Virus record (IMG/VR): IMGVR_UViG_3300023179_004209
Coordinates: 231,832-295,831 of that record
Direction: 5' to 3' (one strand)
DNA from: a virus
Taxonomy: Duplodnaviria; Heunggongvirae; Uroviricota; Caudoviricetes
Length of the DNA: 64,000 nt
The notes beneath the pieces are model-generated. The model had not been told where the DNA came from, did not search any database, and worked only from the letters and a program-made list of their open reading frames with translations. Both the position numbers and the translations under genes were made by a program. Of this stretch, positions 10,042 to 59,645 are shown in pieces. Positions within the stretch are counted from its first letter, which is position 1; the number at the start of each line of letters is the position of its first letter.

Positions 10042-10064
10042 CCCCTAGGATAAAGCCATAGGGG
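10042..10064. repeat. IS end hairpin CCCCTAGG-ATAAAG-CCATAGGGG (right end, overlaps tnpB stop)
   Basis: 8-bp stem with A bulge; near-identical copy at 11323-11345. Confidence 0.6.
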
Positions 10065-23688: not shown

Positions 23689-24033
23689 ATGACTAAAGAA
23701 CAATTAAAATCATTGATTAGAGAATGTGTTTGCGAAATCCAACAATCATTGGAAGAAAAGAAACAAAAGAAAAAGGAAGCTCCTAAAGCACCAGAACCAA
23801 AAGCTGCAGCAAAACCAGCTCCAGTAAAGAAATTGGTAAAGAAACCAGTTAAAAAGAATTTGGCAAAGGTAGCACCACCAAAGGATAAATTGACCACATT
23901 TGACGCAGTTCAATTGGCAAGAAGAGCAGCTGATGCAGAAAAGAGAGGCAACAAACAAGCTGCTAAGGATTTGAACTTGGCTAAGCAAGCAGCTAACTAT
24001 ATGTTAAAGACTGGTAAGACCAAGGTAGATTAA
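23689..24033 (+). CDS. histone-H1-like Lys/Ala/Pro-rich DNA-binding protein with propeptide-like N-terminus MTKEQLKSLIRE
   Basis: KAPEPKAAAKPAPVKKLVKKPVKK low-complexity basic region; start adjusted to ATG after TATATTTATA. Confidence 0.55.
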   Translation: MTKEQLKSLIRECVCEIQQSLEEKKQKKKEAPKAPEPKAAAKPAPVKKLVKKPVKKNLAKVAPPKDKLTTFDAVQLARRAADAEKRGNKQAAKDLNLAKQAANYMLKTGKTKVD

Positions 24034-26025: not shown

Positions 26026-27453
26026 ATGACCGTATCTGAATTAAAATCATTAATAAAAGAAGTATTACTTGAAGCAGTACCATTTGATAAATCAACTGAT
26101 ATTGAATACGGACTAAAAGCCAAGTATGATGAATTGGGCGATTATACATTTGGTGTAGAATTTGAATTTGAACCTGTTGTAGAAGAACAGAATTTATCAA
26201 TGGATCAAATCATAGAAAAGTTGTCAGAGTTGATGGGATCATCATACCGTTATGATAATGGATTAACTGACGCATATAATTCGTGGGTTGAAGAACAAAG
26301 AAAAGAAGCGGCTTGGAAATGGAACCGATATGGAACCATTGATAATATTGATAGATATGATGAAGAATATGGTCCAATGAGTGTAGATACATTTGATAGT
26401 AGTGTTCCAGAACCAGAAAGAAATGATTTTGATAGTGATGATGAATACAATGAAGCATATGAAAAATATGATGAAGTAAGAAATGAAATAGACAGTGAAT
26501 ATGATCGTTGGGAAAGAAGAAATCGAGGTGATTATGTTGATGAATATTTAAGACTTTTAGCAAGAAGTGGAGAATGGACTGATTTTATTCCAGATAGTGA
26601 AATGACTGTAACTGATATGGAAAATGGTATTGATTCTGCGTATAACTTATTAGATAGTTTGGGTGAAGATGTAAGAAAAGATGATAAACCAGATAAAAAT
26701 ACATGGGCAGTAGGAGAAGACGGACCAAATGTTGAAATAAGAAGCAGACATATGAGACAAACTGGTCATGATTTTAATATTATTTCCAAAGTAGGAAATT
26801 GGGTAAGTGATCAAGCAACACACGGTAAAACTGGGATGCATATTCATATAGGAGTTCCAAGTGATTTTGATATGTTTGATGTATTGGCAATGAGTACATT
26901 GGTTGATGAAAAAGCTATTAAATCTGAAGTAGCCATGGATAGAGATTTTAACAGTTTTGCTAAATTGAGAAGAAGTTTGAGTAACGCAATTTATAACAGA
27001 ATTCATGAATACATGCGTAGACAATCTGAAAATGTACCAAAATCTTTTATTCTTACAAACGCACAAATGAAAGAAATATTATCTGGATTTGATCGTAATC
27101 ATGGTACAAATATTGCAGCATTTAGTGAACATAAAACAATTGAATTTAGATATTTGGGATCTGATATGGCAGATCAAGTATTAAAGTGGATATCTTATTT
27201 CTTGTTGTTACCTCGTATTGCTAAGAGTAGAAATCAGATAAAATTGGATACTATTTATAATGAACAAATAGTAGCTACCAGATTACCAGGCAAGATTAAA
27301 TTTGATTTGTTTAAGACTGATGAACCAAGAACTAGTGTTCCAATGCCAAAAGAACCTGCAGATTTAATCAAACAAAAAGCATTTGAATTACCAAGCAAAT
27401 TGGATATTGCGAAACAACAAGCTGCGGTTAAAAAACAATCGGGAACACAATAA
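26026..27453 (+). CDS. acidic protein with propeptide-like N-terminus MTVSELKSLIKE
   Basis: ORF; D/E-rich first half. Confidence 0.55.
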   Translation: MTVSELKSLIKEVLLEAVPFDKSTDIEYGLKAKYDELGDYTFGVEFEFEPVVEEQNLSMDQIIEKLSELMGSSYRYDNGLTDAYNSWVEEQRKEAAWKWNRYGTIDNIDRYDEEYGPMSVDTFDSSVPEPERNDFDSDDEYNEAYEKYDEVRNEIDSEYDRWERRNRGDYVDEYLRLLARSGEWTDFIPDSEMTVTDMENGIDSAYNLLDSLGEDVRKDDKPDKNTWAVGEDGPNVEIRSRHMRQTGHDFNIISKVGNWVSDQATHGKTGMHIHIGVPSDFDMFDVLAMSTLVDEKAIKSEVAMDRDFNSFAKLRRSLSNAIYNRIHEYMRRQSENVPKSFILTNAQMKEILSGFDRNHGTNIAAFSEHKTIEFRYLGSDMADQVLKWISYFLLLPRIAKSRNQIKLDTIYNEQIVATRLPGKIKFDLFKTDEPRTSVPMPKEPADLIKQKAFELPSKLDIAKQQAAVKKQSGTQ

Positions 27454-27472: not shown

Positions 27473-28936
27473 ATGACATTGTTTGAACATATTTTGATTG
27501 AAGGTAGAGTGGATGATTTTAAGAATTTATTAAAAAATAAGTTCAGCATTGATTATGTTCAAAAGATTATCAATAGAGATACCAGCAAAAACCATAAGAA
27601 TTTGTTATGGATTGGTAAGATACTAAAAACAGAACCAGATATCAATGAAGAAGATTTGTTTAAAAATCTGGAAATATTCAACAAAGTAGCATCATCCACT
27701 GATTTGTATAGTTTTAAAGAGTATAGTACATTTTTGAGTTTCTTACAAAAGAAAAGTAAAGAAGTACAAATGGGTAAGATGGCTCAAATCAAAGCTGGTT
27801 CACGTACAATTAAAGATGATAAAAGATGGTTGGTAGTTGCACCAGAAACACATGATGCAAGTAGATATTTTGGTGGTGGTACCAGCTGGTGTATCAGTAC
27901 AAGCAATGATAGATACTGGAAAGATTATTATTATGCACAAACCATAGTAATGATTAAAGATAGAAGTAAGAAACCAGACAATGACTTGTTCAAAGTTGCC
28001 ATTGTTGGTAATGCCTATGAACAACTTTGGGATACTAGTTTTAGTGATAAGATAGATAAAATCAGAGAATTATCAAAACATGTAGATTTATATAATGTCA
28101 ATGACAATAAATTAAGTGGTGACCAAAAAATTAATTATTTAGGACAATTACCAGAAGATTTAATTGAAGACTTGATGAATTATTTTAATGATGATGATGT
28201 CTATGAAAGACAAACCAATCATTATTATGAACTTGCAAGAGAAAGATATGATGAAGGTGGTAAAGAAGAACTTTTGAAATCATTGTTTAATACTACGGTA
28301 GCGTATTTTGATGCGGATGTTGATTTTCATGCAGATGATTTTGGTGATTTAATGAGCAGACAATTTGCAGATGAAATTCAAGACGGTAATTGGGATGAAT
28401 TTTTAAGTGAACTATGGGGTGCATGTATAACTTATCAAGGTGTAGAGGATGATTCTTTTTATGCTGAAGTAAATACAAGAAATTTCAAAAACTTGATAAG
28501 TGATACCAGTTATGATTTAAATACCTATCTTGATTTAGCCAAAGAAGTATTGAAAAATGAGGATATATCAAATATGGATAACATCATAAAAGATGCGTTG
28601 ATTAAAACATCTGATAATGGTGATCCATATACTGTAATTAAAAGACAAGCAAATCAATTAAAAGATACAAATTATAATGATATAATATTATCATCATTAA
28701 ATGCATATAATGCAAAAAATAATCCTACTTTTATTCAAGGTCAGAGATCTTTGGGACCAGAATTTATGGGTATTGTAAATAAATTTAAACCAAAGAACAT
28801 TGAGGATGTAATTAAAGTGTTGAGTATCAATCCTAGAGCAAAGGATATGATTGATCAGATACAAAGATACAGAAGAGATTTGTATGAATCCAAGAAAAAG
28901 CGGACAATTAAATATAGAGATTTTTACAAATTATGA
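27473..28936 (+). CDS. hypothetical protein (N-terminus MTLFEHILIE)
   Basis: start moved to ATG after TATATTTATAACAAT to avoid 70-nt overlap. Confidence 0.5.
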   Translation: MTLFEHILIEGRVDDFKNLLKNKFSIDYVQKIINRDTSKNHKNLLWIGKILKTEPDINEEDLFKNLEIFNKVASSTDLYSFKEYSTFLSFLQKKSKEVQMGKMAQIKAGSRTIKDDKRWLVVAPETHDASRYFGGGTSWCISTSNDRYWKDYYYAQTIVMIKDRSKKPDNDLFKVAIVGNAYEQLWDTSFSDKIDKIRELSKHVDLYNVNDNKLSGDQKINYLGQLPEDLIEDLMNYFNDDDVYERQTNHYYELARERYDEGGKEELLKSLFNTTVAYFDADVDFHADDFGDLMSRQFADEIQDGNWDEFLSELWGACITYQGVEDDSFYAEVNTRNFKNLISDTSYDLNTYLDLAKEVLKNEDISNMDNIIKDALIKTSDNGDPYTVIKRQANQLKDTNYNDIILSSLNAYNAKNNPTFIQGQRSLGPEFMGIVNKFKPKNIEDVIKVLSINPRAKDMIDQIQRYRRDLYESKKKRTIKYRDFYKL

Positions 28937-32431: not shown

Positions 32432-33199
32432 ATGAAAGTCATCAAAGGAGACGTAAACTTAGATTGTTTAAATTTGAGAGAAATACCGGAAATTATCAAG
32501 GATGTTTCAATTGAAGGATCATTAAGTTTATATAATAACAATTTGCGTAGTCTTAAAAATTGTCCTAAAAAAATTATACGTCATTTAAATGTGGCTAATA
32601 ATAGAAGTTTACGTTCATTGGTTGGTGGACCAGAAGAAGTAGGTGCTATTGATGTACATAATTGTAATCTAACAAGTTTAGAAGGATTTCCAAAGATAGT
32701 TAAATCTGGCAATTTTTTAGGTGGTCGTGTAGATGTTAGTGGTAACAAATTGACTTCATTGGTTGGTTTACCAGAAGAATTGTCGGAGTTAGTGATATAT
32801 AATAATCCTGGTCTTAAAACATTGCAGGGTTGTCCTAAAATTATCCGTGGTGGTTTTGAAGCATTATGGTTACCAATTACCAATATGATTGGCGGTCCAA
32901 CTGTAATATATGATGATTTGTTGTTGTATGATACAGAAATAAATTCGTTGGAAGGATTTCCAAAAAAAGTTGGTGGCAACATTTTTCTAGGCAATACACC
33001 ACTTGGTAGTATATTATTTCCTAACAGAGTAACACCAGAAACAAAGAAAAAATCTGAGGAATTAATAAATAAAATACACAGTATATGTGATATTGGAGGT
33101 GGTATATACAGAACTGCAGATGATATTGAAGAAGAAAATCCAGAAATAGAAATGGATGATTATGAACCAGATGAATATGGAGGATTTCGCAGAGTATGA
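32432..33199 (+). CDS. LRR protein paralog 1 (LPX-type 20-22-aa repeats NxLTSLxGxP)
   Basis: about 9 repeats, e.g. NNLRSLKNCPKKI, CNLTSLEGFPKIV, NKLTSLVGLPEEL. Confidence 0.6.
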   Translation: MKVIKGDVNLDCLNLREIPEIIKDVSIEGSLSLYNNNLRSLKNCPKKIIRHLNVANNRSLRSLVGGPEEVGAIDVHNCNLTSLEGFPKIVKSGNFLGGRVDVSGNKLTSLVGLPEELSELVIYNNPGLKTLQGCPKIIRGGFEALWLPITNMIGGPTVIYDDLLLYDTEINSLEGFPKKVGGNIFLGNTPLGSILFPNRVTPETKKKSEELINKIHSICDIGGGIYRTADDIEEENPEIEMDDYEPDEYGGFRRV

Positions 33200-33921
33200 A
33201 ACGCAAACATTTTTATGATAATGTAGAATTAGATCATCTATTTCTAAAAGAAATACCAGATAATATTGCAATGTATGCGTGTCATGGTTTATATGATATA
33301 TCTGATAATAAACTTACATCATTAAAAAATTGTCCGTCATTTGTAAAAGATAATTTTAATTGCAGCCTTAATAACTTAACATCATTAAGAGATGGTCCAC
33401 AAGAAGTTCAAGGAAGTTATAATTGTGCTGATAATAAAATAACATCATTGGATGGTATTGCAAAAATTATTGGAGGAGGTGTAGATGTATCATATAATCA
33501 ATTGTCATCATTACAAGGTATTCCAACACTAAAATCTAATAGATTATTAAAAGTGAGTGATAATAAAATTACAAGTTTGATTGGATATGGATTTGAGTCA
33601 ATTGAATTTAGTTCATTTGATGTAACCTCAAATAAATTAACATCATTGGCAGGTAGTCCATATAGAGTGAATGCAAATTATGAATGTGATGCTAATCCAA
33701 TTGAAAACTTTGTGGGTGGTCCTAAATTTGTTGGAAGAAATTTTTATGCAACAAGTTTACGAAGTTTAAAATCAATTGAAGGATTACCACATGTAATTGA
33801 AGGTAGATTATTTATCAGTATGATTGATATGCGTAGAATATTTCCTGGTCTTGCTGACGGAAACATAATAAAAGAAATTAGATCTATCAGCAACATTATT
33901 GGTGGTATAGCTACAATATAA
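33196..33921 (+). CDS. LRR protein paralog 2
   Basis: NKLTSLKNCPSFV, NNLTSLRDGPQEV, NKITSLDGIAKII... Confidence 0.6.
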   Translation: MKRKHFYDNVELDHLFLKEIPDNIAMYACHGLYDISDNKLTSLKNCPSFVKDNFNCSLNNLTSLRDGPQEVQGSYNCADNKITSLDGIAKIIGGGVDVSYNQLSSLQGIPTLKSNRLLKVSDNKITSLIGYGFESIEFSSFDVTSNKLTSLAGSPYRVNANYECDANPIENFVGGPKFVGRNFYATSLRSLKSIEGLPHVIEGRLFISMIDMRRIFPGLADGNIIKEIRSISNIIGGIATI

Positions 33922-33925
33922 AATT

Positions 33926-34657
33926 ATGAAAAAAATAGAAGGATATGTAGATTTAAGTGATTATGACTTCAAAGAAGTACCGTCAATATTAAATGATGTT
34001 AGTATTGAAGGTATTCTAAATATAGCTGATAATCGCATAAAAAATTTAAACAACTTTCCTTTAAATTGTGAATCTGTTTATTTGTCAGGAAATCCATTAA
34101 CTAGTTTAGTTGGTATAAAACAAAAGTATATAAGGGATTTGGAAGCAAGTAGAACAAAGATTCAAAATTTGGAAGGATGTCCTGAAATTGTATCACAACT
34201 TTTAATAAAAAACTGTGCATCATTTAATAGTTTAAAAGGAACTTTAAAAGAAATCTCAGGTCAACCCGCATATTTGACTATAAGAGGTACTTCATTACAA
34301 ACATTAGAATATTGTCCAAAAACAAATAATAATGTTAGTTTTCGTCTTGATTTTAATAAAATAACATCATTAGTTGGTCTGCCAAATAAATGTCGTGATC
34401 TACATATCAGTGATAATAACTTAACTAGTCTAGTTGGATGTCCTCAACATATCAAGGGTGATTTTTATTGTAATAATAACAATTTGAAAACATTTGACGG
34501 ATTTCCCAAAGTAGTTGAAGGTATCATATATATGACACTTTCACCTATGTATGACAATCCATTGATGATGCAATCATATTATTTTGAAAAAGAAATTAGA
34601 AAAAGATGTAAAGTTTATGGTATATCATTGACTGAACCAAAAAATGTACAAATTTAA
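33926..34657 (+). CDS. LRR protein paralog 3
   Basis: same repeat type; N-terminal DFKEVPSILNDVSIEG shared with paralogs 1 and 4. Confidence 0.6.
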   Translation: MKKIEGYVDLSDYDFKEVPSILNDVSIEGILNIADNRIKNLNNFPLNCESVYLSGNPLTSLVGIKQKYIRDLEASRTKIQNLEGCPEIVSQLLIKNCASFNSLKGTLKEISGQPAYLTIRGTSLQTLEYCPKTNNNVSFRLDFNKITSLVGLPNKCRDLHISDNNLTSLVGCPQHIKGDFYCNNNNLKTFDGFPKVVEGIIYMTLSPMYDNPLMMQSYYFEKEIRKRCKVYGISLTEPKNVQI

Positions 34658-34668
34658 TAACTGATAAT

Positions 34669-35349
34669 ATGGGAAAATATATAAAAGGAGATGTAACATT
34701 ATCTGGACTTCATTTAAAGAAGCTGCCTGAAATATTAAAGGATTTAACAATTGAAGGCAGTATATTTTTGAGTGGAAATCAGCTCACTACATTAGAAAAT
34801 TTCCCGGAACTTGTAACGGAAAATATAATGTTAGGTTCAAATCCATTGGTTAGTTTAAAAGGTATAAAACAAACCGCTGTATCAACATTATCCATAGATA
34901 ACGGTAAATTTAGTAATTTGGAAGGATGTCCATCACACATTAATAAATTAAATATAGTGGGTAATAGTAACTTAAAAAGTCTAAAGGGACTTGCACCTCA
35001 TTTAATATCTTTAAAAATTATAGGTACACCATTGCAAACAATGGAATATTGCAATCAAAATATTCACGGTACATATCATCTTGAATTTAATTTATTAAAA
35101 TCTCTGGTTGGAATGCCAAAACAATGTAGAGAACTAAAAATAGGATTCAATCAATTAGAAAATTTTATTGGTGCTCCTGAAGTTGTACTTGGAGATTTTC
35201 AATGTTATCATAATCCAATACTATCATTGGAAGGATTTCCAAAATATGCAAAAAGAGTGATTATTAATAATTTTATGAAAGACAGAGAACTTACAAGAAG
35301 AGATGTAGCAAGAGTGTGTGAAGCAGAAGAAATTGTCATTTCAGTATAA
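34669..35349 (+). CDS. LRR protein paralog 4
   Basis: LHLKKLPEILKDLTIEGS; NQLTTLENFPELV etc. Confidence 0.6.
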   Translation: MGKYIKGDVTLSGLHLKKLPEILKDLTIEGSIFLSGNQLTTLENFPELVTENIMLGSNPLVSLKGIKQTAVSTLSIDNGKFSNLEGCPSHINKLNIVGNSNLKSLKGLAPHLISLKIIGTPLQTMEYCNQNIHGTYHLEFNLLKSLVGMPKQCRELKIGFNQLENFIGAPEVVLGDFQCYHNPILSLEGFPKYAKRVIINNFMKDRELTRRDVARVCEAEEIVISV

Positions 35350-35380: not shown

Positions 35381-36334
35381 ATGAAACAACTATTGACAGA
35401 AGCCAATCTAACAAATTTTTCAGAATTACTAACTGCCATTAACAAAGTATTGGACAACAAAGACATTCCACAATTTGCTGGTAGTGAAACCAATAAAGTA
35501 AGAGATTGGTTTGTAAAACAATATGTAAAAGCAATCAAAGAAGATGAAGTTGACCTACAATCATCCATCACACCACACAAATATAGTGAAGGTGAACCAG
35601 AATGGATGAATAAATCTGACATCATGGACTTTAGTGGTGAATTACCAGAAGATGTAGTTGATGAAATTGGTCATACAGTAGACTATTTTGCTACACTTGA
35701 CGCAAATGACTTGAGAAAAATCTACAAAGAACCATATAGAGTCATCAAACAAAAGGTACAAGAATGGGACAGAGAATTGGCATCAACATCAACTGATACC
35801 AAGAAGGAAGATAATCTAAAGAAAACCTTAGTCAAGGGTACTGATTATAAGATTATCAAGGAAGTATCTGGATTAAAGTGGGTAAAACTACTTACACCAA
35901 AATCAAAAGATGTTGAAGGTGATGTAATGGGACATTGTGTAGGTGGTGAAGGTTATGAAAACAGAGACATTTATTCATTATGGGATAATAGAGATAGATC
36001 TCATGTGACTATTGAAGCTGATGATAACAGAAAGACTATTCAACAAATCAAGGGTAAACAAAATAGAGAACCAGTTGAAAAATATCAACCAGCTTGTGTT
36101 GAATTCGTGGCTAATGCAATGTTGCAAGGATACAGAGTACAAGGTGACGGTGAAAACATTGGTATGATCAAACATAACAGTGAATATCACTTTGATGAAT
36201 TAAATGTATTACCAGAAAAATTCAGAAACAAAGAAATATTTAGAACTTGGGTAGATAAAATTTTCCCAACTGAAATATTCCCTAAACAACAAAAAGCTAT
36301 TGCTGATATTGCAAAAAGAATTGTTGAAGTATAA
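35381..36334 (+). CDS. hypothetical protein (N-terminus MKQLLTE)
   Basis: start moved to ATG after TAATATTTATAAACAT. Confidence 0.5.
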   Translation: MKQLLTEANLTNFSELLTAINKVLDNKDIPQFAGSETNKVRDWFVKQYVKAIKEDEVDLQSSITPHKYSEGEPEWMNKSDIMDFSGELPEDVVDEIGHTVDYFATLDANDLRKIYKEPYRVIKQKVQEWDRELASTSTDTKKEDNLKKTLVKGTDYKIIKEVSGLKWVKLLTPKSKDVEGDVMGHCVGGEGYENRDIYSLWDNRDRSHVTIEADDNRKTIQQIKGKQNREPVEKYQPACVEFVANAMLQGYRVQGDGENIGMIKHNSEYHFDELNVLPEKFRNKEIFRTWVDKIFPTEIFPKQQKAIADIAKRIVEV

Positions 36335-36378: not shown

Positions 36379-36759
36379 ATGCATATACAATATCAGACCG
36401 TAACATTAGAAGGAATAAAGAAAACCGCAGATATAATGTATGGTATATACGAAATGGAGCATTCTGACAATGCTCCATTTAAGCGTTGGGTATGGACCGA
36501 TAGTGTATTTGGTGGGGTGTTACAAAAAATAGATACTATTGATTTTAGAATCAAGAGTCCTATTGACAATCTTTTAATAGTAAATGATAGTGTAAAGTTT
36601 TATCTTAAAAAGGATATACTCTGTAATTTGAGAATAGTAACTACTAACTATACAGAGTTAAAGATGAAATTGGATGAAAAATATAAAATAGATAATGACC
36701 CGAGAGATTTAGGAATTCTTATATTTGGTGTTAGCATTGGTTCATCTGAATTATTCTAA
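36379..36759 (+). CDS. hypothetical protein
   Basis: ORF. Confidence 0.5.
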   Translation: MHIQYQTVTLEGIKKTADIMYGIYEMEHSDNAPFKRWVWTDSVFGGVLQKIDTIDFRIKSPIDNLLIVNDSVKFYLKKDILCNLRIVTTNYTELKMKLDEKYKIDNDPRDLGILIFGVSIGSSELF

Positions 36760-36791
36760 TTTAATAATAAATCTATCATATTTATATCTAT

Positions 36792-37640
36792 ATGATTAAA
36801 TTGATAGATTTACTAAATGAAACGCCTATAGGTACATATACAACCATAGGTGACTTTGAAAAAGGTGCATCATATAAAGATCCAAGAGATAGAGCATCTG
36901 TTAGTCATCCAGTAACAGTACAAAAAGTCAAGGATATGTTGAAAAATACAATTGTTGACTTTGATTTTTACTTTGTTAACAAGCCTGGATTAAGACAATT
37001 TAGTGAAAAAGGTAAAGTACCATATGAATTCATTTTCAAACCAGTTCCAGAAGGTTTAGGATTGACACACGAAGAATTGGGTGATAGAAGTATAAACAGT
37101 GATAATATCACTGTATTCTTTGTAAGTAATACCGCTGCGGATAAAATTCCAATGACTGCGTGGACTATTGTTCATAGAGTTGGTCACGCAATGAATAGAA
37201 CACCACAGTTTCAAGAATATACAAACTGGTTGGATAAACAATTTGATGAATTACTTGCTTTGTATGGTAAACAAAAAGTAAATACCAGATATAGTTTTGG
37301 TGATAATGATTATAAAAGATCAAGAGTTTATGATTTAGCTAAGGGTAGATTATTCAATCATATAGGTACAATGCGTAGTGCTAGAGAAGGTAGAATACAT
37401 CTTAGACCATATGAATTTTACTATGAATTGTTTGTACAATATTTGAAAGACGGTGAAATTAAATTCAATCCATTGACCAAAAACATTTTGGTTGGTTATG
37501 GACCATATGGTAGTAAAAGTATTGCTTATACACAAAATTTAGCTGACGCACAAGAACATTTAAATATGATTGCAAATACAATACCATATTATGTTGAAGA
37601 TGTATTGAGAGCGAATGCTGGTGATATATTTGTAATGTAA
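36792..37640 (+). CDS. protein with N-terminal decapeptide MIKLIDLLNE (propeptide candidate 1)
   Basis: ORF; shares only the first 10 aa with the next three genes. Confidence 0.6.
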   Translation: MIKLIDLLNETPIGTYTTIGDFEKGASYKDPRDRASVSHPVTVQKVKDMLKNTIVDFDFYFVNKPGLRQFSEKGKVPYEFIFKPVPEGLGLTHEELGDRSINSDNITVFFVSNTAADKIPMTAWTIVHRVGHAMNRTPQFQEYTNWLDKQFDELLALYGKQKVNTRYSFGDNDYKRSRVYDLAKGRLFNHIGTMRSAREGRIHLRPYEFYYELFVQYLKDGEIKFNPLTKNILVGYGPYGSKSIAYTQNLADAQEHLNMIANTIPYYVEDVLRANAGDIFVM

Positions 37641-37641
37641 T

Positions 37642-37983
37642 ATGATTAAATTGATTGACATATTATTTGAAAATAAGGGTAACTATGTTTATCATTTGAC
37701 TAAGTTATCTAATTTAGACAGTATTAAAAAACACGGATTAAGACCTGCTATACCTGTCGATATGGATACTGAAGAAGAAGGTGTTTATTTATTTAAAACT
37801 GAAGAAGATGCGGAAGATGCATTACAAAATTGGTATGGTGATAGATACGATGATACAGAAGAGTTTGCAATATTGACCATAAAGACAGATGGTTTGAGAT
37901 TATTTTCAACATTAGCAGACTATGAATATGTTTCTTATGAAACAATACCGTCGTCAAATATAGTTAATATGGAAAAAATATGA
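37642..37983 (+). CDS. protein with N-terminal MIKLIDILFE (propeptide candidate 2)
   Basis: ORF. Confidence 0.6.
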   Translation: MIKLIDILFENKGNYVYHLTKLSNLDSIKKHGLRPAIPVDMDTEEEGVYLFKTEEDAEDALQNWYGDRYDDTEEFAILTIKTDGLRLFSTLADYEYVSYETIPSSNIVNMEKI

Positions 37984-38519
37984 TTAAACTCAAAGACATA
38001 TTGAAAGAGACAATCAATGATAGTATTGATTATGGATATCATTATACCAGCAAGAAAAATTATGAAAAGATAAAGACTGAAGGGTTGAAAATAAATCAGT
38101 CTATGCATATGACACTCAGAAATAATGAATGGATGTTAGATGCTTATGGTAAGATTCCTATATTTTTGGGTACAAAACCTCTTACACAATATGGTCCAAG
38201 AATACCAGTAGGTAGTGAATATGATTGGGTTTTATTAAAAGTAGATGTAAATGGTCTTGATATTTCTGCGGATATTGGTACAATGATTGACTTTGGTGCA
38301 TATATTGAAAAGGATGGTTTTTGGTTCAAACAAAAACCTTTTTGGTTAAATGATACTGAATTTAATTATGATGATTTGCAAGGCAGTGATAAATTGGATT
38401 TATATAAAGTAATAAGACAAACAAAATCGTTTGTAGTATTAGAAGATATAAGTTTGGATAGAATAAAACAGATAGATTATAAAGGAAAACTTTCAATCAA
38501 AAACTTTTTTAATATATAA
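37980..38519 (+). CDS. protein with N-terminal MIKLKDILKE (propeptide candidate 3)
   Basis: ORF. Confidence 0.6.
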   Translation: MIKLKDILKETINDSIDYGYHYTSKKNYEKIKTEGLKINQSMHMTLRNNEWMLDAYGKIPIFLGTKPLTQYGPRIPVGSEYDWVLLKVDVNGLDISADIGTMIDFGAYIEKDGFWFKQKPFWLNDTEFNYDDLQGSDKLDLYKVIRQTKSFVVLEDISLDRIKQIDYKGKLSIKNFFNI

Positions 38520-39019
38520 TGATTAAATTATCTCAATTAATAAATGAATTAAAATTGACAAATGATATGCGTATTCATATGTCAAAGAATCCATTTGAAT
38601 TGGAACAAAGAACATTCAAACAAAACATTGGAATGAAACCATTTGGATTTTGGTATGGTTTTGGTAGTGAATGGATTGACTGGACACGAAGTGAAGTGCC
38701 GGATTGGGTTGGTAAATACATTTATAGTGTTGATATTGGAAATTCCAATGTATTACAGATAAATACCCATATGGAATTGATGCAATTTAACCGTGAATAT
38801 CAATCCAATATAAGTGGTATTGGACATAGAAGACTAGAAGGTGAAGTAATTGACTGGAAAAAAGTTGCTGATAAGTATGATGGTATAGAAATCAATCCAT
38901 ATCAATTTGAAGCTAGATATCAATATTTATGGTATTATGGTTGGGATATTGCAAGTGGGTGTATATGGAATTTAAAGAATGTTAAACTAAAGTTGTTAAC
39001 TGATAAAGGAATAGAATGA
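38519..39019 (+). CDS. protein with N-terminal MIKLSQLINE (propeptide candidate 4)
   Basis: ORF. Confidence 0.6.
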   Translation: MIKLSQLINELKLTNDMRIHMSKNPFELEQRTFKQNIGMKPFGFWYGFGSEWIDWTRSEVPDWVGKYIYSVDIGNSNVLQINTHMELMQFNREYQSNISGIGHRRLEGEVIDWKKVADKYDGIEINPYQFEARYQYLWYYGWDIASGCIWNLKNVKLKLLTDKGIE

Positions 39020-39537
39020 ACTTGATTACAGAAAATAGACACAGTGAATTTGGTTGTTTAATGGCTATAGTTGAACCAACCAGAGGACCACACATCATTA
39101 AATTTGGTAAAACAATAGTACCACCACAAATTCTTTATACTGATCCAAATGATAGTAGCTATGGTTATGATGATGAACCACACATTACAGCTAAGTATGG
39201 TTATTCTCCTGACTTAACAAGAGCTAATTTAGCCACCATTCTACAAGGTATCAAACCATTTATTGTTAAACTTACTGGTTTAACCCAATTTCAAAATGAA
39301 AAGTATGATGTAGTCAAGTTTGATGTAGAAAAGAATGAGATATTATCTGAAATAAGACGAAGATGCGATTGTTATAAGAATGAGGATAAATACCCAGATT
39401 ACAAACCACATATGACATTGGCTTATGTACAAAAAGGTAAGTTTCCTCATATTAAAGAAGGATTAAACATATCTGTACCAGTCACCAGATTCAAATATAG
39501 TGGTCAAGACGGTAAAAAATTATACATCAATTTGTAA
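39016..39537 (+). CDS. 2H phosphoesterase superfamily protein (LigT / cyclic phosphodiesterase-like)
   Basis: two H-x-T-x motifs (EPHITAKY and KPHMTLAY) about 85 aa apart. Confidence 0.6.
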   Translation: MNLITENRHSEFGCLMAIVEPTRGPHIIKFGKTIVPPQILYTDPNDSSYGYDDEPHITAKYGYSPDLTRANLATILQGIKPFIVKLTGLTQFQNEKYDVVKFDVEKNEILSEIRRRCDCYKNEDKYPDYKPHMTLAYVQKGKFPHIKEGLNISVPVTRFKYSGQDGKKLYINL

Positions 39538-39586
39538 TATATAAAAAGTGCTCGTTTTAATTATAAAAAGTATATTTATAATTACT

Positions 39587-40543
39587 ATGAGCAAGTTTCT
39601 ATCACTAATTGTATTTTCGTTGTTTTTGATTGGTTGTACGACAACAATTAAGCCAGGACAACAAGTGAGCACTGCGCAAGATGCGGTTGCCAAACAAGAA
39701 AAGAAAATTGATCAAACATATGATGATTTGGTCAAGAATGACAAGCATAAAAGAGTACAAACATCTGTATTAGCTCAAGGTATTCAATATTCGTTACAAC
39801 AAGTAACCAATGCACCAATTCAAGTAGAAACTGCTAAGAATCTTAATGAAAGAGTTATCAGTATAGTTGGTTCACCACATTTAGACGAAATCAAAAGAAT
39901 CAAAGCTACAATCGACTTATTAAATTCATCATTGGCCGAAGAAAGAAAGAAGGGTGAAGAATTGTTGGGTCAAAGAGATGTTATCATTGATAAGTTACAG
40001 AAGGAAAAGAATGAATTAAAAGACAAATATGATGACCAACTTTGGCAAATGACTGATAAAGCCAAAGAAGTTGCAAAAGAATCTGATGCAAAACAAGCTA
40101 CTATTGATAGTATGAGTGGTATGTTTGGTCTTAATGCAGTTTTCTGGGGTCTTAAAAAGTTTTTCTTTAGTTGTTTAACCGCAATCATTATATTTGTTGT
40201 AGTATTTGCTTTATTAAGAATACTAGCAAGTGTACATCCAGCAGCTGGTGCAGCATTTAGTATATTCAACATGCTTGGTTCTGGAATCTTGAGTTTGGTT
40301 AAAGGATTAACACCAAAAGCATTTGAATTGGCTAATTTTGCATCAAAAGATAAGGTTGATGAATATAAGTCACCACTTACTAAGATAGTTGATGTAATTC
40401 AAGAACTCAAGGAAAAACAAAAAGAATCTCCTGAAAGAGTATATCCATTGACCGAAGTATTAAAGAGATTTGACAAAGAAATGGATAGCACTGAAAAAGA
40501 CTTGATTGATGATATTCTAAAAGAACAAAAATGGATTAAATAA
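39587..40543 (+). CDS. lipoprotein / membrane protein with coiled-coil region
   Basis: MSKFLSLIVFSLFLIGC lipobox; internal TM segments. Confidence 0.55.
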   Translation: MSKFLSLIVFSLFLIGCTTTIKPGQQVSTAQDAVAKQEKKIDQTYDDLVKNDKHKRVQTSVLAQGIQYSLQQVTNAPIQVETAKNLNERVISIVGSPHLDEIKRIKATIDLLNSSLAEERKKGEELLGQRDVIIDKLQKEKNELKDKYDDQLWQMTDKAKEVAKESDAKQATIDSMSGMFGLNAVFWGLKKFFFSCLTAIIIFVVVFALLRILASVHPAAGAAFSIFNMLGSGILSLVKGLTPKAFELANFASKDKVDEYKSPLTKIVDVIQELKEKQKESPERVYPLTEVLKRFDKEMDSTEKDLIDDILKEQKWIK

Positions 40544-40929: not shown

Positions 40930-41571
40930 ATGTTAAAATCATTATTATCACTACTATTAACTACAACAATATTTGCAGCGGAATTTGAATCGGTAAATTA
41001 TTATACAAAGAATTACCTATTTGACGCTCAAATATATTCTGTCAATACTTTCGTATCCGAAAACACACTTAGCCATCAACTAGGTGATTTTACGCCGCAT
41101 CTTGACTATGTACAATACCAAGGTTTGGATAAATATAAAGAAAGTGACTTTGGATTTGGTAGTGAATATAAACTAACAGATAAACTAAATTTGGATGTAG
41201 GTAGTTGGTATTACTATTATTACAGTGCAGGTGACCATTATTTTGAACCATACGCATCATTAACTTATGATTGGATAGTATCACCAACATTATATTTTAG
41301 TATGATAACATACAATAATACACCTAGAGCAACAATAAGCTTTGATTATAACAAAGATTTTAATGAAAAGCTGCATTTGAATGTAAGACCAGTGATTGGT
41401 ACTGCAGACTATGATGTAAGATATGGTTATTATGGTATAGTATTTGGTTTGGATTACAATGTAAATAAGAATTTTACATTGTTTACTGTTACAGAAGTTG
41501 ATAAACCTTTTAGTTCACCTGACGATAGTATCGTATACACTTATTCATTTGGAATCAAATTATCCCTATGA
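40930..41571 (+). CDS. secreted Tyr-rich beta-rich protein (possible outer-membrane protein)
   Basis: signal peptide MLKSLLSLLLTTTIFAA; alternating aromatic pattern. Confidence 0.5.
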   Translation: MLKSLLSLLLTTTIFAAEFESVNYYTKNYLFDAQIYSVNTFVSENTLSHQLGDFTPHLDYVQYQGLDKYKESDFGFGSEYKLTDKLNLDVGSWYYYYYSAGDHYFEPYASLTYDWIVSPTLYFSMITYNNTPRATISFDYNKDFNEKLHLNVRPVIGTADYDVRYGYYGIVFGLDYNVNKNFTLFTVTEVDKPFSSPDDSIVYTYSFGIKLSL

Positions 41572-43007
41572 AATTTCTTAAATTCAATTTGAGATTCGCA
41601 TTATCTACCAGCACACTATTCATTTTAGTGTTGGTAAGTATGGTATATTTCTTTTTGTTAATATTTGCAATTGAAGATATTGCAAAGAATAGTTTGAAAA
41701 GAAGTTTAAATACCTCGGTGAATATTTGTAGCAGTATTCTTGACCCAAATGAAATTGAAAAGTTAACTGAATATGAACAAGAAAAAAGCGAAGTATTTAT
41801 CAATTACAGAAAGTCTATCAAAGAAATAAAGAAAGAAGTAGAAGATATTAAATTTGTTTATATTGTAAGACAAACGGGTACAAATATCACTTATATAATA
41901 GATTGTGGTGATGATGTATCCGAACAAGCTAAATTGGGTGAAATATATGATGATGCGGGTGATGGATTGAAAGAATTATTTAACAATCCAGTTGAAGGTG
42001 TAACATTTGAGAAAGAATATTATACAGACAAGTGGGGTACATTTTTATCCGCATATAAACCAATATTTAAAAACGGTAAAATCATATATGCAGTTTGCAG
42101 TGATATCAAGTCAGTTGATGTTGAAAAGTATATATCAAATTATAAAAAGAAGTTTACTTGTGCATTTTTTACATTGTTAATTGTTATATTTCCAATCATA
42201 TGTTGGATAACAAATATGATTAGAAGACCACTTAATAAGTTAAGAGATGAAATTCTCAAGTTAAAAGATTTGGATGTAGATGAACATATTGATTTTAAGA
42301 GTAGTATCAGTGAAGTAAATGATATGATTGACGCAACTGATAAGGTAAAAACTGGTTTAAGATCATTTTCAAAGTATGTACCTGACAAGGTTGTAAAACA
42401 ATTGATAAGTCAAGGTAAGGATGCAAAAATTGGTGGGGAAAAAGAATATGTAACAATACTATTTAGTGACATTGAAGGATTTACAAGTATATCTGAAAAC
42501 AATGATACTCAAGAAGTTGTAACTGCATTAAATGAATATTTTGATATCTATGTACATTGTTTGGAAGAAAGTGGTGCAACTGTTGATAAATTCATTGGTG
42601 ACGCTGTAATGTCATTTTGGAATGCACCAAGTAAAGTTGAAAACCATGAATTTATTGCGGTCAAAACTGCAATGGAAATTGTCAAAGAAATTAATAAATT
42701 GAATCAAAAATGGAAAACTGAAGGTAAGAAATTTACATTCAAAACCAGAATAGGTATCAATTCTGGTGAAGTTATTGTCGGTAATATTGGTTCGACAAAC
42801 CGTATCAATTATACTGTTACTGGTGATCCTGTTAATTTGGCATCAAGATTAGAAGCGTCAAATAAACAATACAATACAACAATTTTAGTAAGTGAATCTG
42901 TTTATAATAAAACAAAAGAGTCAATTGATTATAATTATATTGACACAGTGAAGGTAAAAGGAAAAGAAATATATGTAAAAGTATATCAACCCGTTAAACT
43001 CAAGTAA
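41568..43007 (+). CDS. transmembrane sensor class III adenylyl/guanylyl cyclase
   Basis: TM1, about 150-aa extracytoplasmic domain, TM2, linker, then CHD. CHD motifs FSDIEGFTSISE, KFIGDAVMSFWNAP, RIGINSGEVIVGNIGS, TVTGDPVNLASRLE. Confidence 0.75.
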   Translation: MKFLKFNLRFALSTSTLFILVLVSMVYFFLLIFAIEDIAKNSLKRSLNTSVNICSSILDPNEIEKLTEYEQEKSEVFINYRKSIKEIKKEVEDIKFVYIVRQTGTNITYIIDCGDDVSEQAKLGEIYDDAGDGLKELFNNPVEGVTFEKEYYTDKWGTFLSAYKPIFKNGKIIYAVCSDIKSVDVEKYISNYKKKFTCAFFTLLIVIFPIICWITNMIRRPLNKLRDEILKLKDLDVDEHIDFKSSISEVNDMIDATDKVKTGLRSFSKYVPDKVVKQLISQGKDAKIGGEKEYVTILFSDIEGFTSISENNDTQEVVTALNEYFDIYVHCLEESGATVDKFIGDAVMSFWNAPSKVENHEFIAVKTAMEIVKEINKLNQKWKTEGKKFTFKTRIGINSGEVIVGNIGSTNRINYTVTGDPVNLASRLEASNKQYNTTILVSESVYNKTKESIDYNYIDTVKVKGKEIYVKVYQPVKLK

Positions 43008-45530: not shown

Positions 45531-45606
45531 GTCCCTATAGCTCAAACGGATAGAGCATCTGCCTTCTAAGCAGATGATCCAGGTTCGATTCCTGGTGGGG
45601 ATACCA
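45531..45606 (+). tRNA. tRNA-Arg (anticodon TCT)
   Basis: hand-folded cloverleaf. Acceptor GTCCCTA/TGGGGAT with wobbles; D-stem GCTC/GAGC; anticodon arm TCTGC-CTTCTAA-GCAGA; T-arm CCAGG-TTCGATT-CCTGG; A+CCA. Confidence 0.7.
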
Positions 45607-45668
45607 TTTTTTGAACATATTTATAAATTTGTATATATTTATATGTTCAAACTTCTCTAAAAAAGAAG

Positions 45669-45696
45669 TTGATTCTTTGAAAATTTGCGGTAAGAT
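45669..45696 (+). promoter_or_regulatory. promoter TTGATT-N17-TAAGAT followed by the AGTAGTAAGT..GTTCTTT motif
   Basis: one of four promoters in the RNA cluster followed by GTAGTAAGT. Confidence 0.45.
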
Positions 45697-45823
45697 AAAG
45701 AAGTAGTAAGTAATTTGTTCTTTCAGCATGGTGGGAGAAGCACTCCTCTAGAACATCTTCGTATGGCGGAACTGCCTTGACCTTTAATCAAAGGGGGTCA
45801 CCAACGAAAGAAACAAATTACTG

Positions 45824-45852
45824 TTGACAAAAGAATAAATCGTGGTAAGATA
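45824..45852 (+). promoter_or_regulatory. promoter TTGACA-N17-TAAGAT followed by AGTAGTAAGTTCTTTAAAA
   Basis: as above. Confidence 0.5.
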
Positions 45853-45936
45853 AAAAAGTAGTAAGTTCTTTAAAATAAAAATATGAAAGTAAAGGATTAC
45901 TAATCTTTTGCTTATAATGTATAATATATATTCTAT

Positions 45937-46368
45937 ATGGAACATAGTAAACAAAAAGGCAATTTAGGATTTTCTGCAACTCTCAAAGAATTACATAAAC
46001 TTGGATATAATGTATTTACTGAAGTTGGAGATTACTCTAAAATAGATATGATAGTTGAGGTAAAGAATAAATTAATTAAACTTCAAGTTAAATACATTAC
46101 GGATTCAAATGGAAAAGTAACTTTAAACTTACAAAAAAGTGGACCAAATGGGTATAGATACAAGTATACAGAACTTGATATAGATTTGTTCAGTATTTAC
46201 TTACCTACTTTAGATAAAGTAATTTTTGTACCTGCTAAATTAGCTTGTAAGAATACTAAAGCATTTAGCATTAGATTTAATGAAAGTAAAAATCATCAAA
46301 GTAAACATATTAATTATATAAGTGAATTTGAAGATTTAAATAAAACACTAAACAATTTAGTTCTTTAA
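45937..46368 (+). CDS. hypothetical protein embedded in the tRNA cluster
   Basis: ORF; stop codon lies within the GTTCTTTAAAA motif. Confidence 0.5.
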   Translation: MEHSKQKGNLGFSATLKELHKLGYNVFTEVGDYSKIDMIVEVKNKLIKLQVKYITDSNGKVTLNLQKSGPNGYRYKYTELDIDLFSIYLPTLDKVIFVPAKLACKNTKAFSIRFNESKNHQSKHINYISEFEDLNKTLNNLVL

Positions 46369-46375
46369 AATTTAT

Positions 46376-46451
46376 GGGATTGTAGCTCAATTGGCAGAGC
46401 AGTTCGCTTTTAACGAATTGGTTGACGGTTCAAGTCCGTCCGGTCCCACCA
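46376..46451 (+). tRNA. tRNA-Lys (anticodon TTT)
   Basis: GGGATTG..CGGTCCC acceptor; anticodon loop CTTTTAA; T-arm GACGG-TTCAAGT-CCGTC; A+CCA. Confidence 0.7.
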
Positions 46452-46457
46452 TTTAAT

Positions 46458-46532
46458 GGCGTTATCGTCTATCGGCTAGGACACTGGACTTTCACTCCGG
46501 TAAGAGGGGTTCGATTCCCCTTAACGCTACCA
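46458..46532 (+). tRNA. tRNA-Glu (anticodon TTC)
   Basis: GGCGTTA..TAACGCT acceptor; anticodon loop CTTTCAC; T-arm GGGG-TTCGATT-CCCC. Confidence 0.65.
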
Positions 46533-46721
46533 TTTTGTTTGTCCGTTGCTTAAAAGAAACGGAATGGTGGAGGGTAAATAACCAAAACACCCCTAGAGTT
46601 GGAAGTTCTCTTAAAAAACTTCTTGGTTGCGGGGATGAGTCATGGTATACTTTGTTTGTTGGGTGGACAAAGTATTCAATAAACACACCCAACACAATTT
46701 ATATAGTTCTTTAAAATTCAA

Positions 46722-46878
46722 TAGCTGGCGGCAGGTTAGATCTGGGGGTGGCTCATAACCATTCATTAAGTAGGTGCGATTCCTATGCTTCAGCAACCAT
46801 TTGAATGGCTGGGGTTTCAGCAAACGACGAATCCTCATAAGGTTTGTTAAGTGGGGGCAGCACCCATACCAGCTACCA
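46722..46878 (+). ncRNA. tRNA-like / mini tmRNA-like element (acceptor-like stem + T-like arm + CCA; internal GCA AAC GAC GAA TCC TCA TAA)
   Basis: 5' TAGCTGG pairs with 3' CCAGCTA followed by CCA; hairpin GTGGG-GGCAGCA-CCCAT; exact 12-mer of canonical tmRNA tag start at 46820. Confidence 0.3.
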
Positions 46879-46970
46879 TTTACGCCCGGAGAATATCCGA
46901 TCAATACGCAACACGGAAAGAAACCTCCTCTAAAGGGAAACTTGCTAGTAGCGGGCGACGATTTTAGATG

Positions 46971-46998
46971 TTGACAAAACATCAATGTGTGATAAGAT
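46971..46998 (+). promoter_or_regulatory. promoter TTGACA-N16-TAAGAT
   Basis: drives short RNA ending at terminator 47109-47141. Confidence 0.5.
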
Positions 46999-47004
46999 GA
47001 TTTT

Positions 47005-47141
47005 AAGGTTAGTTGAGTCCGTTACCTTAGATTAAAAACTCAACAGTGTTTGATCAGAGCTTCTATAATAAATGATCTCTCGACCAGTAGATAGCTGGTT
47101 ACATTTTCAGTGGTTTTGAAGATAAAACCACTCGGATTTTT
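47005..47141 (+). ncRNA. putative small RNA between promoter and terminator
   Basis: hairpin GTTGAGT..ACTCAAC and terminator hairpin AGTGGTTTT..AAAACCACT + TTTTT; no ORF. Confidence 0.4.
47109..47141 (+). terminator. Rho-independent terminator
   Basis: 9-bp stem + CGGATTTTT. Confidence 0.6.
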
Positions 47142-47166
47142 AGTTAGTTCTTTAACAAAACAATTT

Positions 47167-47252
47167 GCGGGGTGTCAGAAGTCTGGTATCTGGCTACGCT
47201 CATAACGTAGTGCCATTTGGCCTCGGAGGTTCAAATCCTCCCCCCGCTACCA
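47167..47252 (+). tRNA. long-variable-arm tRNA with anticodon CAT (identity uncertain)
   Basis: D-stem CAGA/TCTG; anticodon arm CTACG-CTCATAA-CGTAG; 14-nt variable arm; T-arm GGAGG-TTCAAAT-CCTCC; 6-bp acceptor GCGGGG/CCCCGC; ends ..TACCA. Confidence 0.5.
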
Positions 47253-47258
47253 TTTAGT

Positions 47259-47350
47259 GGCCTCAAGATGTAAGGTGCATGGGGAGACTTATAATCTCTA
47301 TAATCGCTCGATTGGCGTTCTGGGCAGTTCGATTCTGCATGAGGCTACCA
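47259..47350 (+). tRNA. type II tRNA, Leu/Tyr-like body with anticodon loop CTTATAA (apparent anticodon TAT)
   Basis: acceptor GGCCTCA/TGAGGCT; anticodon stem GGAGA/TCTCT; long variable arm; T-loop TTCGATT; A+CCA. Confidence 0.5.
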
Positions 47351-47529
47351 TTTTTGATCGTGTAATGGAATTAGACATACGGATGATGGGTAGCACAAAG
47401 TTACGTTACTTGGAGTGGTTTCCAAGTGTAGTTGAAGCAAATTGTGTCCATCAGACGGGTGCTAGATATAGTCTAACCAACCTTGAAACTAGTTGTGGGT
47501 ATTCCAGTCCCACCACGATCACATTTTAC

Positions 47530-47613
47530 GGGTGTGTGATGTAATGGCAGCCATGCAGCACTCAAAATGCTGTGGAGAAATCCGTGGGGGTTCAAGTCCC
47601 TCCATACCCACCA
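47530..47613 (+). tRNA. tRNA-Leu (anticodon CAA)
   Basis: acceptor GGGTGTG/CATACCC; anticodon arm CAGCA-CTCAAAA-TGCTG; long variable arm; T-loop TTCAAGT; A+CCA. Confidence 0.6.
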
Positions 47614-47660
47614 TTTTTATTGTTCATTGAAAATTAGTAGACGCAAAGTAATTTGTATTT

Positions 47661-48350: not shown

Positions 48351-48351
48351 A
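48323..48351 (+). promoter_or_regulatory. promoter TTGACA-N17-TAAGAT inside the 3' end of the HNH gene, followed by AGTAGTAAGT..GTTCTTTAAAA
   Basis: same architecture as 45824 promoter. Confidence 0.5.
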
Positions 48352-48387
48352 AGAGTAGTAAGTGATGGTTCTTTAAAAACTTTTAGT

Positions 48388-48476
48388 GGGCAAGTGGCGA
48401 AATTGGAGAACCGCAAGGGACTTAAAATCCCTTACATTAGAAACGCTGTGGGTTCGAATCCCACCTTGCCTACCAT
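48388..48476 (+). tRNA. tRNA-Leu (anticodon TAA)
   Basis: acceptor GGGCAAG/CTTGCCT; anticodon arm AGGGA-CTTAAAA-TCCCT; long variable arm; T-arm GTGGG-TTCGAAT-CCCAC; A+CCA. Confidence 0.65.
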
Positions 48477-48499
48477 TTTTTGATAGTTCTTTAACAATT

Positions 48500-48810: not shown

Positions 48811-48814
48811 ATAT

Positions 48815-48887: not shown

Positions 48888-48897
48888 TTTTAGTAAT

Positions 48898-59258: not shown

Positions 59259-59645
59259 ATGACCAAGACACAATTGAAACAATTGATAAAAGAGTGTTTA
59301 AATGAAATTGATTTTGCACCTGGTTTTAGACCAACACATGATTTAACCATAGTTTCAACTGTTACTGGTAGTGATGTAGATGATTTAAAAACTTATATAT
59401 TAGAATTACATAGAGTTTTAAAAGCTAATTTTGGTAATGATGTACAGTTTGAAGAAAAATTAAAAATGTCTATGTTGTCAAACGGAGATAAAAAAATTGA
59501 AACCACATTCACTATTATTGATATAATTGATGATTTAATGTCAAAAACAGTAAGAGAAAATCTACAATATATACATGAACAATTAACAATGTGGTCAATA
59601 AATCAAGATTTAGTAATAGACTTTACTTTCAAGATTAAAAAATAG
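59259..59645 (+). CDS. protein with propeptide-like N-terminus MTKTQLKQLIKE
   Basis: start adjusted to ATG after TATTTATATTGAT. Confidence 0.5.
   Translation: MTKTQLKQLIKECLNEIDFAPGFRPTHDLTIVSTVTGSDVDDLKTYILELHRVLKANFGNDVQFEEKLKMSMLSNGDKKIETTFTIIDIIDDLMSKTVRENLQYIHEQLTMWSINQDLVIDFTFKIKK

Follow-up and report, generated by a model that had tools for sequence, protein, structure and literature searches.

A shared decapeptide leader on adjacent phage genes as a candidate capsid-targeting propeptide of the T4 type

Within a 64,000-nucleotide stretch of the IMG/VR virus record IMGVR_UViG_3300023179_004209 (Caudoviricetes; positions 231,832 to 295,831; hereafter the window), four consecutive genes encode proteins that start with nearly the same ten residues: A282 with MIKLIDLLNE, B113 with MIKLIDILFE, C179 with MIKLKDILKE and D166 with MIKLSQLINE. 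By analogy with phage T4, we consider it likely that this leader, MIKLxDLLxE, is the capsid-targeting sequence (CTS) of its phage lineage, a T4-type propeptide that the prohead protease would cut off. In T4, proteins tagged in this way are injected together with the DNA; one of them inhibits a restriction enzyme, and another is an enzyme acting on host RNA polymerase, which it modifies. Mullaney and Black reportedly described the T4 CTS in 1996 for the internal proteins IPI, IPII and IPIII and for Alt, and reviews of it are available (PMC9026906, PMC3012670).

A preliminary description of the window had pointed out the four shared starts, and our reanalysis reproduced the coordinates, lengths (282, 113, 179 and 166 aa) and N-termini exactly (Table 1). 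A six-frame scan of the whole window with the pattern M[ILV]K[ILVM]x1-3[ILVM][ILVM]xE returned only these four sites, adjacent to one another and each at the start of an open reading frame (ORF); we estimate that a random N-terminus would match the pattern by chance at a rate of ~1e-6. All four leaders carry Leu or Ile at position 8 and Glu at position 10. The genes are tightly packed, with A282 and B113 lying 1 nt apart and the following pairs overlapping by 4 nt (B113/C179), 1 nt (C179/D166) and 4 nt (D166 and a 2H phosphoesterase gene). The last of these genes indeed follows the block directly, as first described, and matches Pfam 2_5_RNA_ligase2 with an E-value of 3.4e-10.

Distribution of the leader

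Searching IMG/VR with an exact DNA pattern for the leader, we retrieved at least 120 stretches. Among the matches listed, 141 of 162 exact ones stand at the beginning of an ORF, with multiple matches in each of 27 stretches, whereas a control search of 185,579 bacterial and archaeal genomes gave 120 matches, only 14 of them at ORF starts and none clustered. In 26 IMG/VR loci that contain A282 homologues, the same leader is found on other ORFs of 51 to 646 aa. At least 191 unique tagged ORFs in this pattern-defined set fall into at least 102 families without a BLAST link between their bodies, and conservation drops sharply past E10; the logo signal at positions 1-4, 7, 8 and 10 is circular, because the tagged set was defined by the search pattern. 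The leader is predicted to be disordered in both AlphaFold models, and in that of A282 the per-residue confidence (pLDDT) is below 50 for residues 1-9. These results bear out the earlier suggestion of a modular tag attached to otherwise unrelated proteins, and the comparison with the control marks it as specific to viruses.

Matches of the tagged families in Pfam and PHROGs include phage lysozyme, LysM, poly(A) polymerase / CCA-adding enzyme, NUDIX, HD, RNase T-type (DEDD) exonuclease, SET domain, phosphoribosyltransferase, ART-PolyVal and a putative metallopeptidase, as well as a Zeta-toxin-type P-loop kinase fused to a 5'-deoxyribonucleotidase.

A second sample, centred on the major capsid protein (MCP) and not selected for the leader (79 loci, 960 kb), showed that MIKL is the commonest N-terminal tetrapeptide, present in 41 of 863 unique ORF products. 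The motif Φ-Φ-x-E (Φ, hydrophobic residue) occupies positions 7-10 in 17 of 51 MIKL-type starts versus 22 of 812 others, and many of the remaining MIKL-type starts have a nine-residue form, MIKLxxL(V/I)E↓ (the arrow marks the known or proposed cleavage site throughout). One protein of 150-180 aa that starts with MIKLKHLVE↓N is encoded by a conserved gene between those for gp21 and the scaffold. An ORF with the canonical leader occurs in only 11 of the 79 loci, and each genome probably carries a handful of tagged genes, as in T4.

Head genes and proposed cleavage sites in related phages

No head genes were found within the 64-kb window, so the link between the tag and a head module runs through close homologues on other contigs. 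One tagged P-loop protein led to two cultured phages, Methylophilales phage Melnitz (Kyanoviridae) and Flavobacterium phage vB_FspM_immuto (Immutovirus, 160 kb, 34.5% GC), both of which possess T4-type head modules. In relatives of immuto, the module comprises TerL, portal, scaffold, gp23 and a gp21 protease that retains H85 and S140. Immuto itself carries a leader ORF (24569-24994) that starts with MIKLIDLLTE↓S, and its ORF 112261-112575 starts with MRLLELLRE↓A; papers that mention this phage deal with DNA modification and polymerases. The MIKL leader is absent from Melnitz, where two proteins instead start with MKTFAELQE and MKKFSEIIE, the former being the homologue of the tagged P-loop protein. 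These Melnitz starts (L148-L150, 65855 and 14914) are close to T4 MKTYQEFIAE, and each T4-like lineage may have its own CTS dialect.

As a query against IMG/VR, Melnitz gp21 matched only marine phages closely related to Melnitz, and no contig of interest here. By local tblastn with Melnitz proteins, however, we identified gp21 in 19 of the leader-bearing loci, along with portal (26 loci), TerL (30) and gp23 (15). The head genes there are arranged as TerL, portal, a 285-aa protein, gp21, small ORFs, scaffold and gp23, which is the order in immuto, and leader ORFs often adjoin gp21 and scaffold, and also gp23. Genes of the window itself have counterparts beside such modules. Its lipoprotein, g126, g213 and adenylate cyclase genes lie a few kb from MCP in three loci, at 78-92% identity; a B113 homologue (66% identical) is found 2 kb downstream of MCP in two further loci; in another three, the 2H gene and the leader ORFs interleaved with it occur 3-9 kb downstream of MCP; and A282 homologues occur 3-7 kb downstream of scaffold and gp23 in two loci (L023, L008). 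The window has only ~5 weakly similar genes in common with immuto and Melnitz, so the lineage assignment rests on the homologues of A282, B113, the 2H gene, the lipoprotein, g126 and the cyclase beside head genes. Judged from these comparisons, the window phage belongs to a T4-like lineage related to Flavobacterium phage immuto.

The preliminary description had proposed looking for a prohead protease with (L/I)xE specificity and for the same motif on the capsid and scaffold proteins. In T4, gp21 cleaves after the Glu of I/LxE motifs, and H85 and S140 are the residues mutated to obtain a catalytically dead enzyme (PMC12991175). In agreement, T4 gp21-type proteases were found in 19 leader-bearing loci and in immuto, with the catalytic H85 and S140 (T4 numbering) invariant. 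IPI-III and Alt each lose a short N-terminal peptide to T4 gp21, which also takes 65 residues off gp23 and 10 off the vertex protein gp24 (PMC9958956). The T4 record gives the N-termini MKTYQEFIAE↓A for IPII and IPIII, MELITELFDE for Alt, MLKEQLIAE for gp22 and MNEPQLLIE for gp21, and the cut sites MAKINELLRE↓S in gp24 and FLTE65↓A in gp23. Of these propeptides, the leader resembles those of gp24, Alt and IPII/IPIII.

At the site aligned to T4 E65↓A, the MCP of Melnitz has FLSE↓A and that of immuto QIVSE↓A; L008 and L023 both have QLLDE↓A, and a further locus (L092) has QLVYE↓A. Across the 79 MCP-centred loci, the site at this position takes the forms LLDE↓A, LLNE↓A, LIKE↓A, LIDE↓A, LLSE↓S, LISE↓A and LITE↓A. 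The window leaders end in LLNE↓T, ILFE↓N, ILKE↓T and LINE↓L and thus read like the lineage's own capsid maturation site. Scaffold N-termini carry the motif as well (MSDLLKE↓, MSKDLLKE and MSDILKE), paralleling T4 gp22 MLKEQLIAE, which itself resembles the CTS of the internal proteins, and the lineage's gp21 has a conserved I-x-E-S site near residue 20 of its own N-terminus. For the peptide MIKLIDLLNETPIG, a gp21 cut is predicted after E10.

The proteins behind the leader

The four bodies had been described as unrelated, which holds for A282 and D166: with the leader removed, BLAST detected no similarity between these two or to B113 or C179. It does not hold for B113 and C179, which are remote relatives. 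Just past the leader, both contain a YHxT...I...GL stretch (BLAST E 0.003), with ~21 post-leader residues in common (YHLTKLSNLDSIKKHGL versus YHYTSKKNYEKIKTEGL), and profile-profile alignment joins them at 95% probability over 85 columns, the ten leader residues included.

A282 yields a confident AlphaFold model with a predicted folded domain of 270 residues for which no solved structural relative was found. Its family is widespread (~800 clusters at 50% identity) and has the invariant residues W124, H128, R129, H132, E208 and E212 (an HRxGH...E...E set), with E10 of the leader also invariant or nearly so. Neither tblastn against cultured phages nor searches of Pfam and PHROGs gave a usable match for A282, and a sequence-profile search of the family against the PDB returned nothing below E 0.28. 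In many homologues, the A domain forms the C-terminus of proteins of 400-1222 aa (P0156-P0305; L024:9617-10849), some of which carry GNAT and HD domains. In these long homologues it is always preceded by Φ-x-E↓(A/M)P, as if it were excised from a polyprotein. The junction Φ-x-E↓(A/M/T)P persists both behind a 10-residue leader and behind N-terminal extensions of 100-900 aa, which fits a cleavage site better than a start-codon context. A scan of the fusion partners of the long proteins for MuF-type head domains brought up nothing but GNAT, HD and a weak match to Hint.

C179 models as an ADP-ribosyltransferase (ART) fold of the Tpt1/DarT-like clade. Its family retains H21 (in YHYT), Y56 and E110 invariantly in 29 sequences; these are candidate residues of the H-Y-E triad for NAD+ binding and catalysis, proposed from conservation rather than superposition. 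This prediction, which came from modelling the bodies as had been suggested, offers a parallel to T4 Alt, itself an ADP-ribosyltransferase. B113 has a weak match to Pfam DUF7002. D166 belongs to phrog_8582 (E 4.6e-16), and its homologues in actinophages align over residues 20-156 only, without the leader.

The 2H phosphoesterase has two HxT motifs, PHITAK and PHMTLA. Its start, MNLITE↓N, is not a canonical leader, and its relatives begin with MILSE↓N or MLLVE↓N; a weak Pfam match to Acb1 (anti-CBASS; E 0.001) falls below threshold. The slot between A282 and the 2H gene varies in close relatives: it holds B113, C179 and D166 in the window, a single, different leader gene of 350 aa in one relative and only a D166 homologue in another. 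At the DNA level, no match to 36379-40543 turned up among cultured phages.

Proposed mechanism, alternatives and neighbouring features

By analogy with T4, we infer cleavage, packaging and injection as follows. The operon of A282, B113, C179, D166 and the 2H gene would be transcribed as one unit, probably late, from a ATATTTAT element 6 nt before the first ATG. As in the case of T4 IPIII, each protein would then dock, by way of its flexible leader, to the scaffolding core while the prohead assembles. In the IPIII CTS, residues 4 and 7 serve targeting and residues 8 and 10 processing (PMC9026906), and these four positions are the most conserved ones in the window leaders. The gp21-type serine protease would cut past Glu10 at (L/I)-x-E, a step suggested by the conserved protease and by the lineage's MCP, whose LL(D/N)E↓A site is identical. 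The mature proteins, starting at residue 11, would be retained in the DNA-filled head and pass into the next host along with the DNA.

The 8-mer ATATTTAT is a candidate late promoter. On the + strand of the window, ATATTTAT-N6-ATG occurs 7 times versus 0.28 expected, and 11 ORFs have ATATTTAT at 12-15 nt ahead of their ATG. In immuto, the same 8-mer precedes the terL, sheath, tube, hub and tail-fibre genes as well as the leader ORF, with 31 copies on the coding strand versus 4 on the other. If it is a promoter, the mRNAs would be nearly leaderless, because the element is so near the ATG. A second N-terminal class, MT(K)xxLKxLIKE↓, was also observed, along with shorter forms (MKQLLTE↓, MSKLLNE↓, MTLFEHILIE↓), most of them behind ATATTTAT. 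Among the fetched loci and the window, 47 unique ORFs match the second-class pattern, ~31 of which belong to this class and the rest to MIKL-type leaders. The block from 23.6 to 40.5 kb may thus hold more protease substrates than the four tagged proteins (Table 1).

Several points weigh against a T4-type CTS. Many tagged bodies resemble ordinary cytoplasmic enzymes, for which the need for a location in the head is not obvious, and the count of at least 102 families comes from a set defined by the pattern itself. N-terminal Φ-Φ-x-E is enriched window-wide (18 of 127 ORFs versus 5 expected), so a generic N-terminal helix could account for part of the signal. The window is devoid of head genes, which makes the link dependent on sequence homologues elsewhere, and the cultured relative immuto has only ~1-3 tagged genes. 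Finally, cleavage, packaging and injection of all members are argued from analogy with T4. Taken together, the interpretation offered at the outset is nevertheless supported by the unrelated bodies of A282 and D166, the gp21 protease, the motif on MCP, the modularity of the tag and the predicted ART parallel.

Two alternatives accept the leader as a peptide signal. It could be cut by the prohead protease from proteins that are assembly or core components, degraded or structural, and not injected effectors. The conserved MIKLKHLVE↓N ORF between gp21 and scaffold, the resemblance of scaffold N-termini to the leader and the degradation of T4 gp22, gp67 and gp68 by gp21 (PMC9958956) are compatible with this explanation. 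We nonetheless think it unlikely, given that the window bodies are predicted to be enzyme-like or globular (ART fold, 270-residue folded domain) and that their slot varies among close relatives, as is seen with T-even internal proteins and unlike core scaffold parts. Alternatively, the leader could act independently of any protease, as a docking helix for a common partner or as a degradation or localisation signal. Its presence on many cytoplasmic-type enzymes and the frequency of the second, looser class MTKxxLKxLIKE would agree with such a role; left unexplained, however, would be the invariant junction Glu and its identity with the MCP maturation site, the internal Φ-x-E↓AP junctions of the long A-family proteins, and the restriction to phages with gp21, and we regard a protease-independent tag as distinctly improbable. 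Secretion was rejected as a function, because the leader is charged and lacks a hydrophobic core.

The remaining alternatives place the origin of the similarity in the DNA or in gene ancestry. Conservation at the nucleic-acid level, as a translation-initiation region or a recombination boundary of gene cassettes, would be in line with the nearly constant ATGATTAAA, with genes that overlap stop to start and with the differing content of the slot between A282 and the 2H gene. Codon usage argues to the contrary. Leu4 is encoded by TTG, TTG, CTC and TTA in A282 to D166, all six Leu codons occur at this position among 26 leader genes (window plus relatives), and in the same genes many different codons appear at positions 7 and 8, with GAA or GAG for Glu10. 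Positions 4, 7, 8 and 10 thus vary freely among synonymous codons but retain their amino acids, and E10 is invariant in families of divergent DNA. We therefore rejected a nucleotide-level signal, which we hold to be very improbable, in favour of a peptide element. Paralogy of the four genes through tandem duplication can draw on the remote homology of B113 and C179, but A282 and D166 are without similarity to the others and belong to separate large families, and the same leader occurs on at least 102 unrelated families; plain paralogy was rejected on these grounds and appears scarcely credible.

Every feature of the T4 CTS that can be checked in sequence was found here, except homology of the leader to MKTYQEFIAE. 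As in T4, a 10-residue N-terminal propeptide ending in (L/I)xE precedes otherwise unrelated proteins, positions 4, 7, 8 and 10 are conserved, a T4-type head module includes the gp21 protease, the cargo genes occupy a variable slot, and one cargo has a predicted ADP-ribosyltransferase fold. The present leader, MIKLxDLLxE, differs from the CTS of the T4 internal proteins in that only the pattern is common to both. Moreover, its genes often lie just downstream of the capsid gene, its cargo is far more diverse, with many enzyme folds, some long proteins have the site internally, and the system is known here from sequence alone. The closest sequence match is the T4 gp24 propeptide MAKINELLRE, which has the same length and the same LLxE end and is identical to MIKLKDLLNE at 5 of 10 positions (M1, K3, L7, L8, E10); unlike the leader-bearing cargo, gp24 is a capsid shell protein and not internal.

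Polyvalent proteins of phages and conjugative elements, reportedly described by Iyer, Burroughs and Aravind in 2017, have overlapping domains (ART-PolyVal, Zeta-toxin kinase, metallopeptidase, lysozyme). There, one giant fusion unites the domains, whereas in the present set most occur singly, on small proteins that are tagged individually. In giant phages such as phiKZ, 201phi2-1 and SPN3US, ejection or internal-body proteins have long, variable propeptides with an (S/A/G)-x-E motif and are not known to share a decapeptide. These proteins are comparable in that a prohead protease cuts at a short Glu-ending motif, with delivery to the host following there; many head-internal proteins of these phages are processed in this manner (PMC5694885, PMC10052503).

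Other parts of the window contain additional features of note (Table 1). The transposase ORF looks like a mobile element in a phage genome, because it lies on the strand opposite to almost all genes. The long calls among the tRNA genes may be introns or mis-calls. The cyclase gene is flanked by lipoprotein-like genes, and this block adjoins MCP in relatives. With the 2H enzyme and the Tpt1-like C179 counted alongside the RNA-repair set, the region has a flavour of RNA repair.

Table 1. Positions of the leader-bearing genes, upstream elements and other features in the window
Feature	Position	Strand	Description
A282	36792..37640	+	282 aa, cargo candidate, leader MIKLIDLLNE
A282 leader MIKLIDLLNE	36792..36821	+	cleavage predicted after E10
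B113	37642..37983	+	leader MIKLIDILFE and short body, remote C179 relative (YHLT motif)
C179	37980..38519	+	leader MIKLKDILKE and body with predicted ADP-ribosyltransferase fold, Tpt1/DarT-like clade
D166	38519..39019	+	leader MIKLSQLINE and phrog_8582 body
2H phosphoesterase	39016..39537	+	Pfam 2_5_RNA_ligase2; final gene of the overlapping operon
ATATTTAT motif	36778..36785	+	6 nt upstream of the A282 ATG; candidate late promoter or start-associated element of the A-B-C-D-2H operon
ATATTTAT positions	23674, 26013, 27459, 30763, 32419, 35367, 36778, 39572, 51765, 57148, 59245	+	
MTKEQLKSLIRE↓C	23689..24033	+	possible further substrate, second leader class; behind ATATTTAT
MTVSELKSLIKE↓V	26026..27453	+	possible further substrate; 475-aa body, weak amidoligase match; behind ATATTTAT
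MTKTQLKQLIKE↓C	59259..59645	+	possible further substrate; behind ATATTTAT
More ORFs of the second class or short forms	27473-28936, 35381-36334, 57162-58283, 58387-59181		
Transposase-like ORF	10045-11211	-	388 aa; matches phage transposase families (phrog_506, E 7e-42)
Tandem paralogues	32432-35349		four (255, 241, 243 and 226 aa), leucine-rich-repeat-like
Adenylate/guanylate cyclase	41568-43007		membrane-anchored; Pfam E 5.8e-27; 34% identical to Melnitz cyclase
tRNA genes	45531-48990		8 genes; two long tRNA-Ile(TAT) calls (92-93 nt) and an 87-nt tRNA-Met
RnlA-like RNA ligase	55673-56764		phrog_562, E 3.8e-38; part of RNA-repair set
P-loop kinase, then phosphoesterase	60141-61233		part of RNA-repair set
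RNA-ligase-like gene	63820-64000		start of a second such gene at the window end

That CTS-like sequences allow T-even phages to load varied proteins is already in the literature (PMC9026906, PMC3012670). New here are the lineage and its leader sequence, together with the wide range of cargo and a testable sequence rule. We see an even chance that the tag, together with its nine-residue and MTKxxLKxLIKE variants, marks a large, fast-exchanging set of at least 100 unrelated families that are loaded into the head and injected by abundant uncultured aquatic T4-like phages. If so, this set would include ADP-ribosyltransferases, CCA-adding enzymes, NUDIX and HD hydrolases, kinases, lysozymes and the A282 family. 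The prediction is directly testable, since the cultured phage immuto carries a tagged gene. Most of the candidates, A282 among them, have no known function, and the sequence rule would pick such candidate injected proteins out of metagenomes without proteomics. The injected proteome would then be readable from sequence, and the tag would provide a handle on the counter-defence and takeover factors of the first minutes of infection. That the same logic recurs in so distant a phage group, environmentally abundant and largely uncultured, would imply that the mechanism is old and general among T4-type phages.

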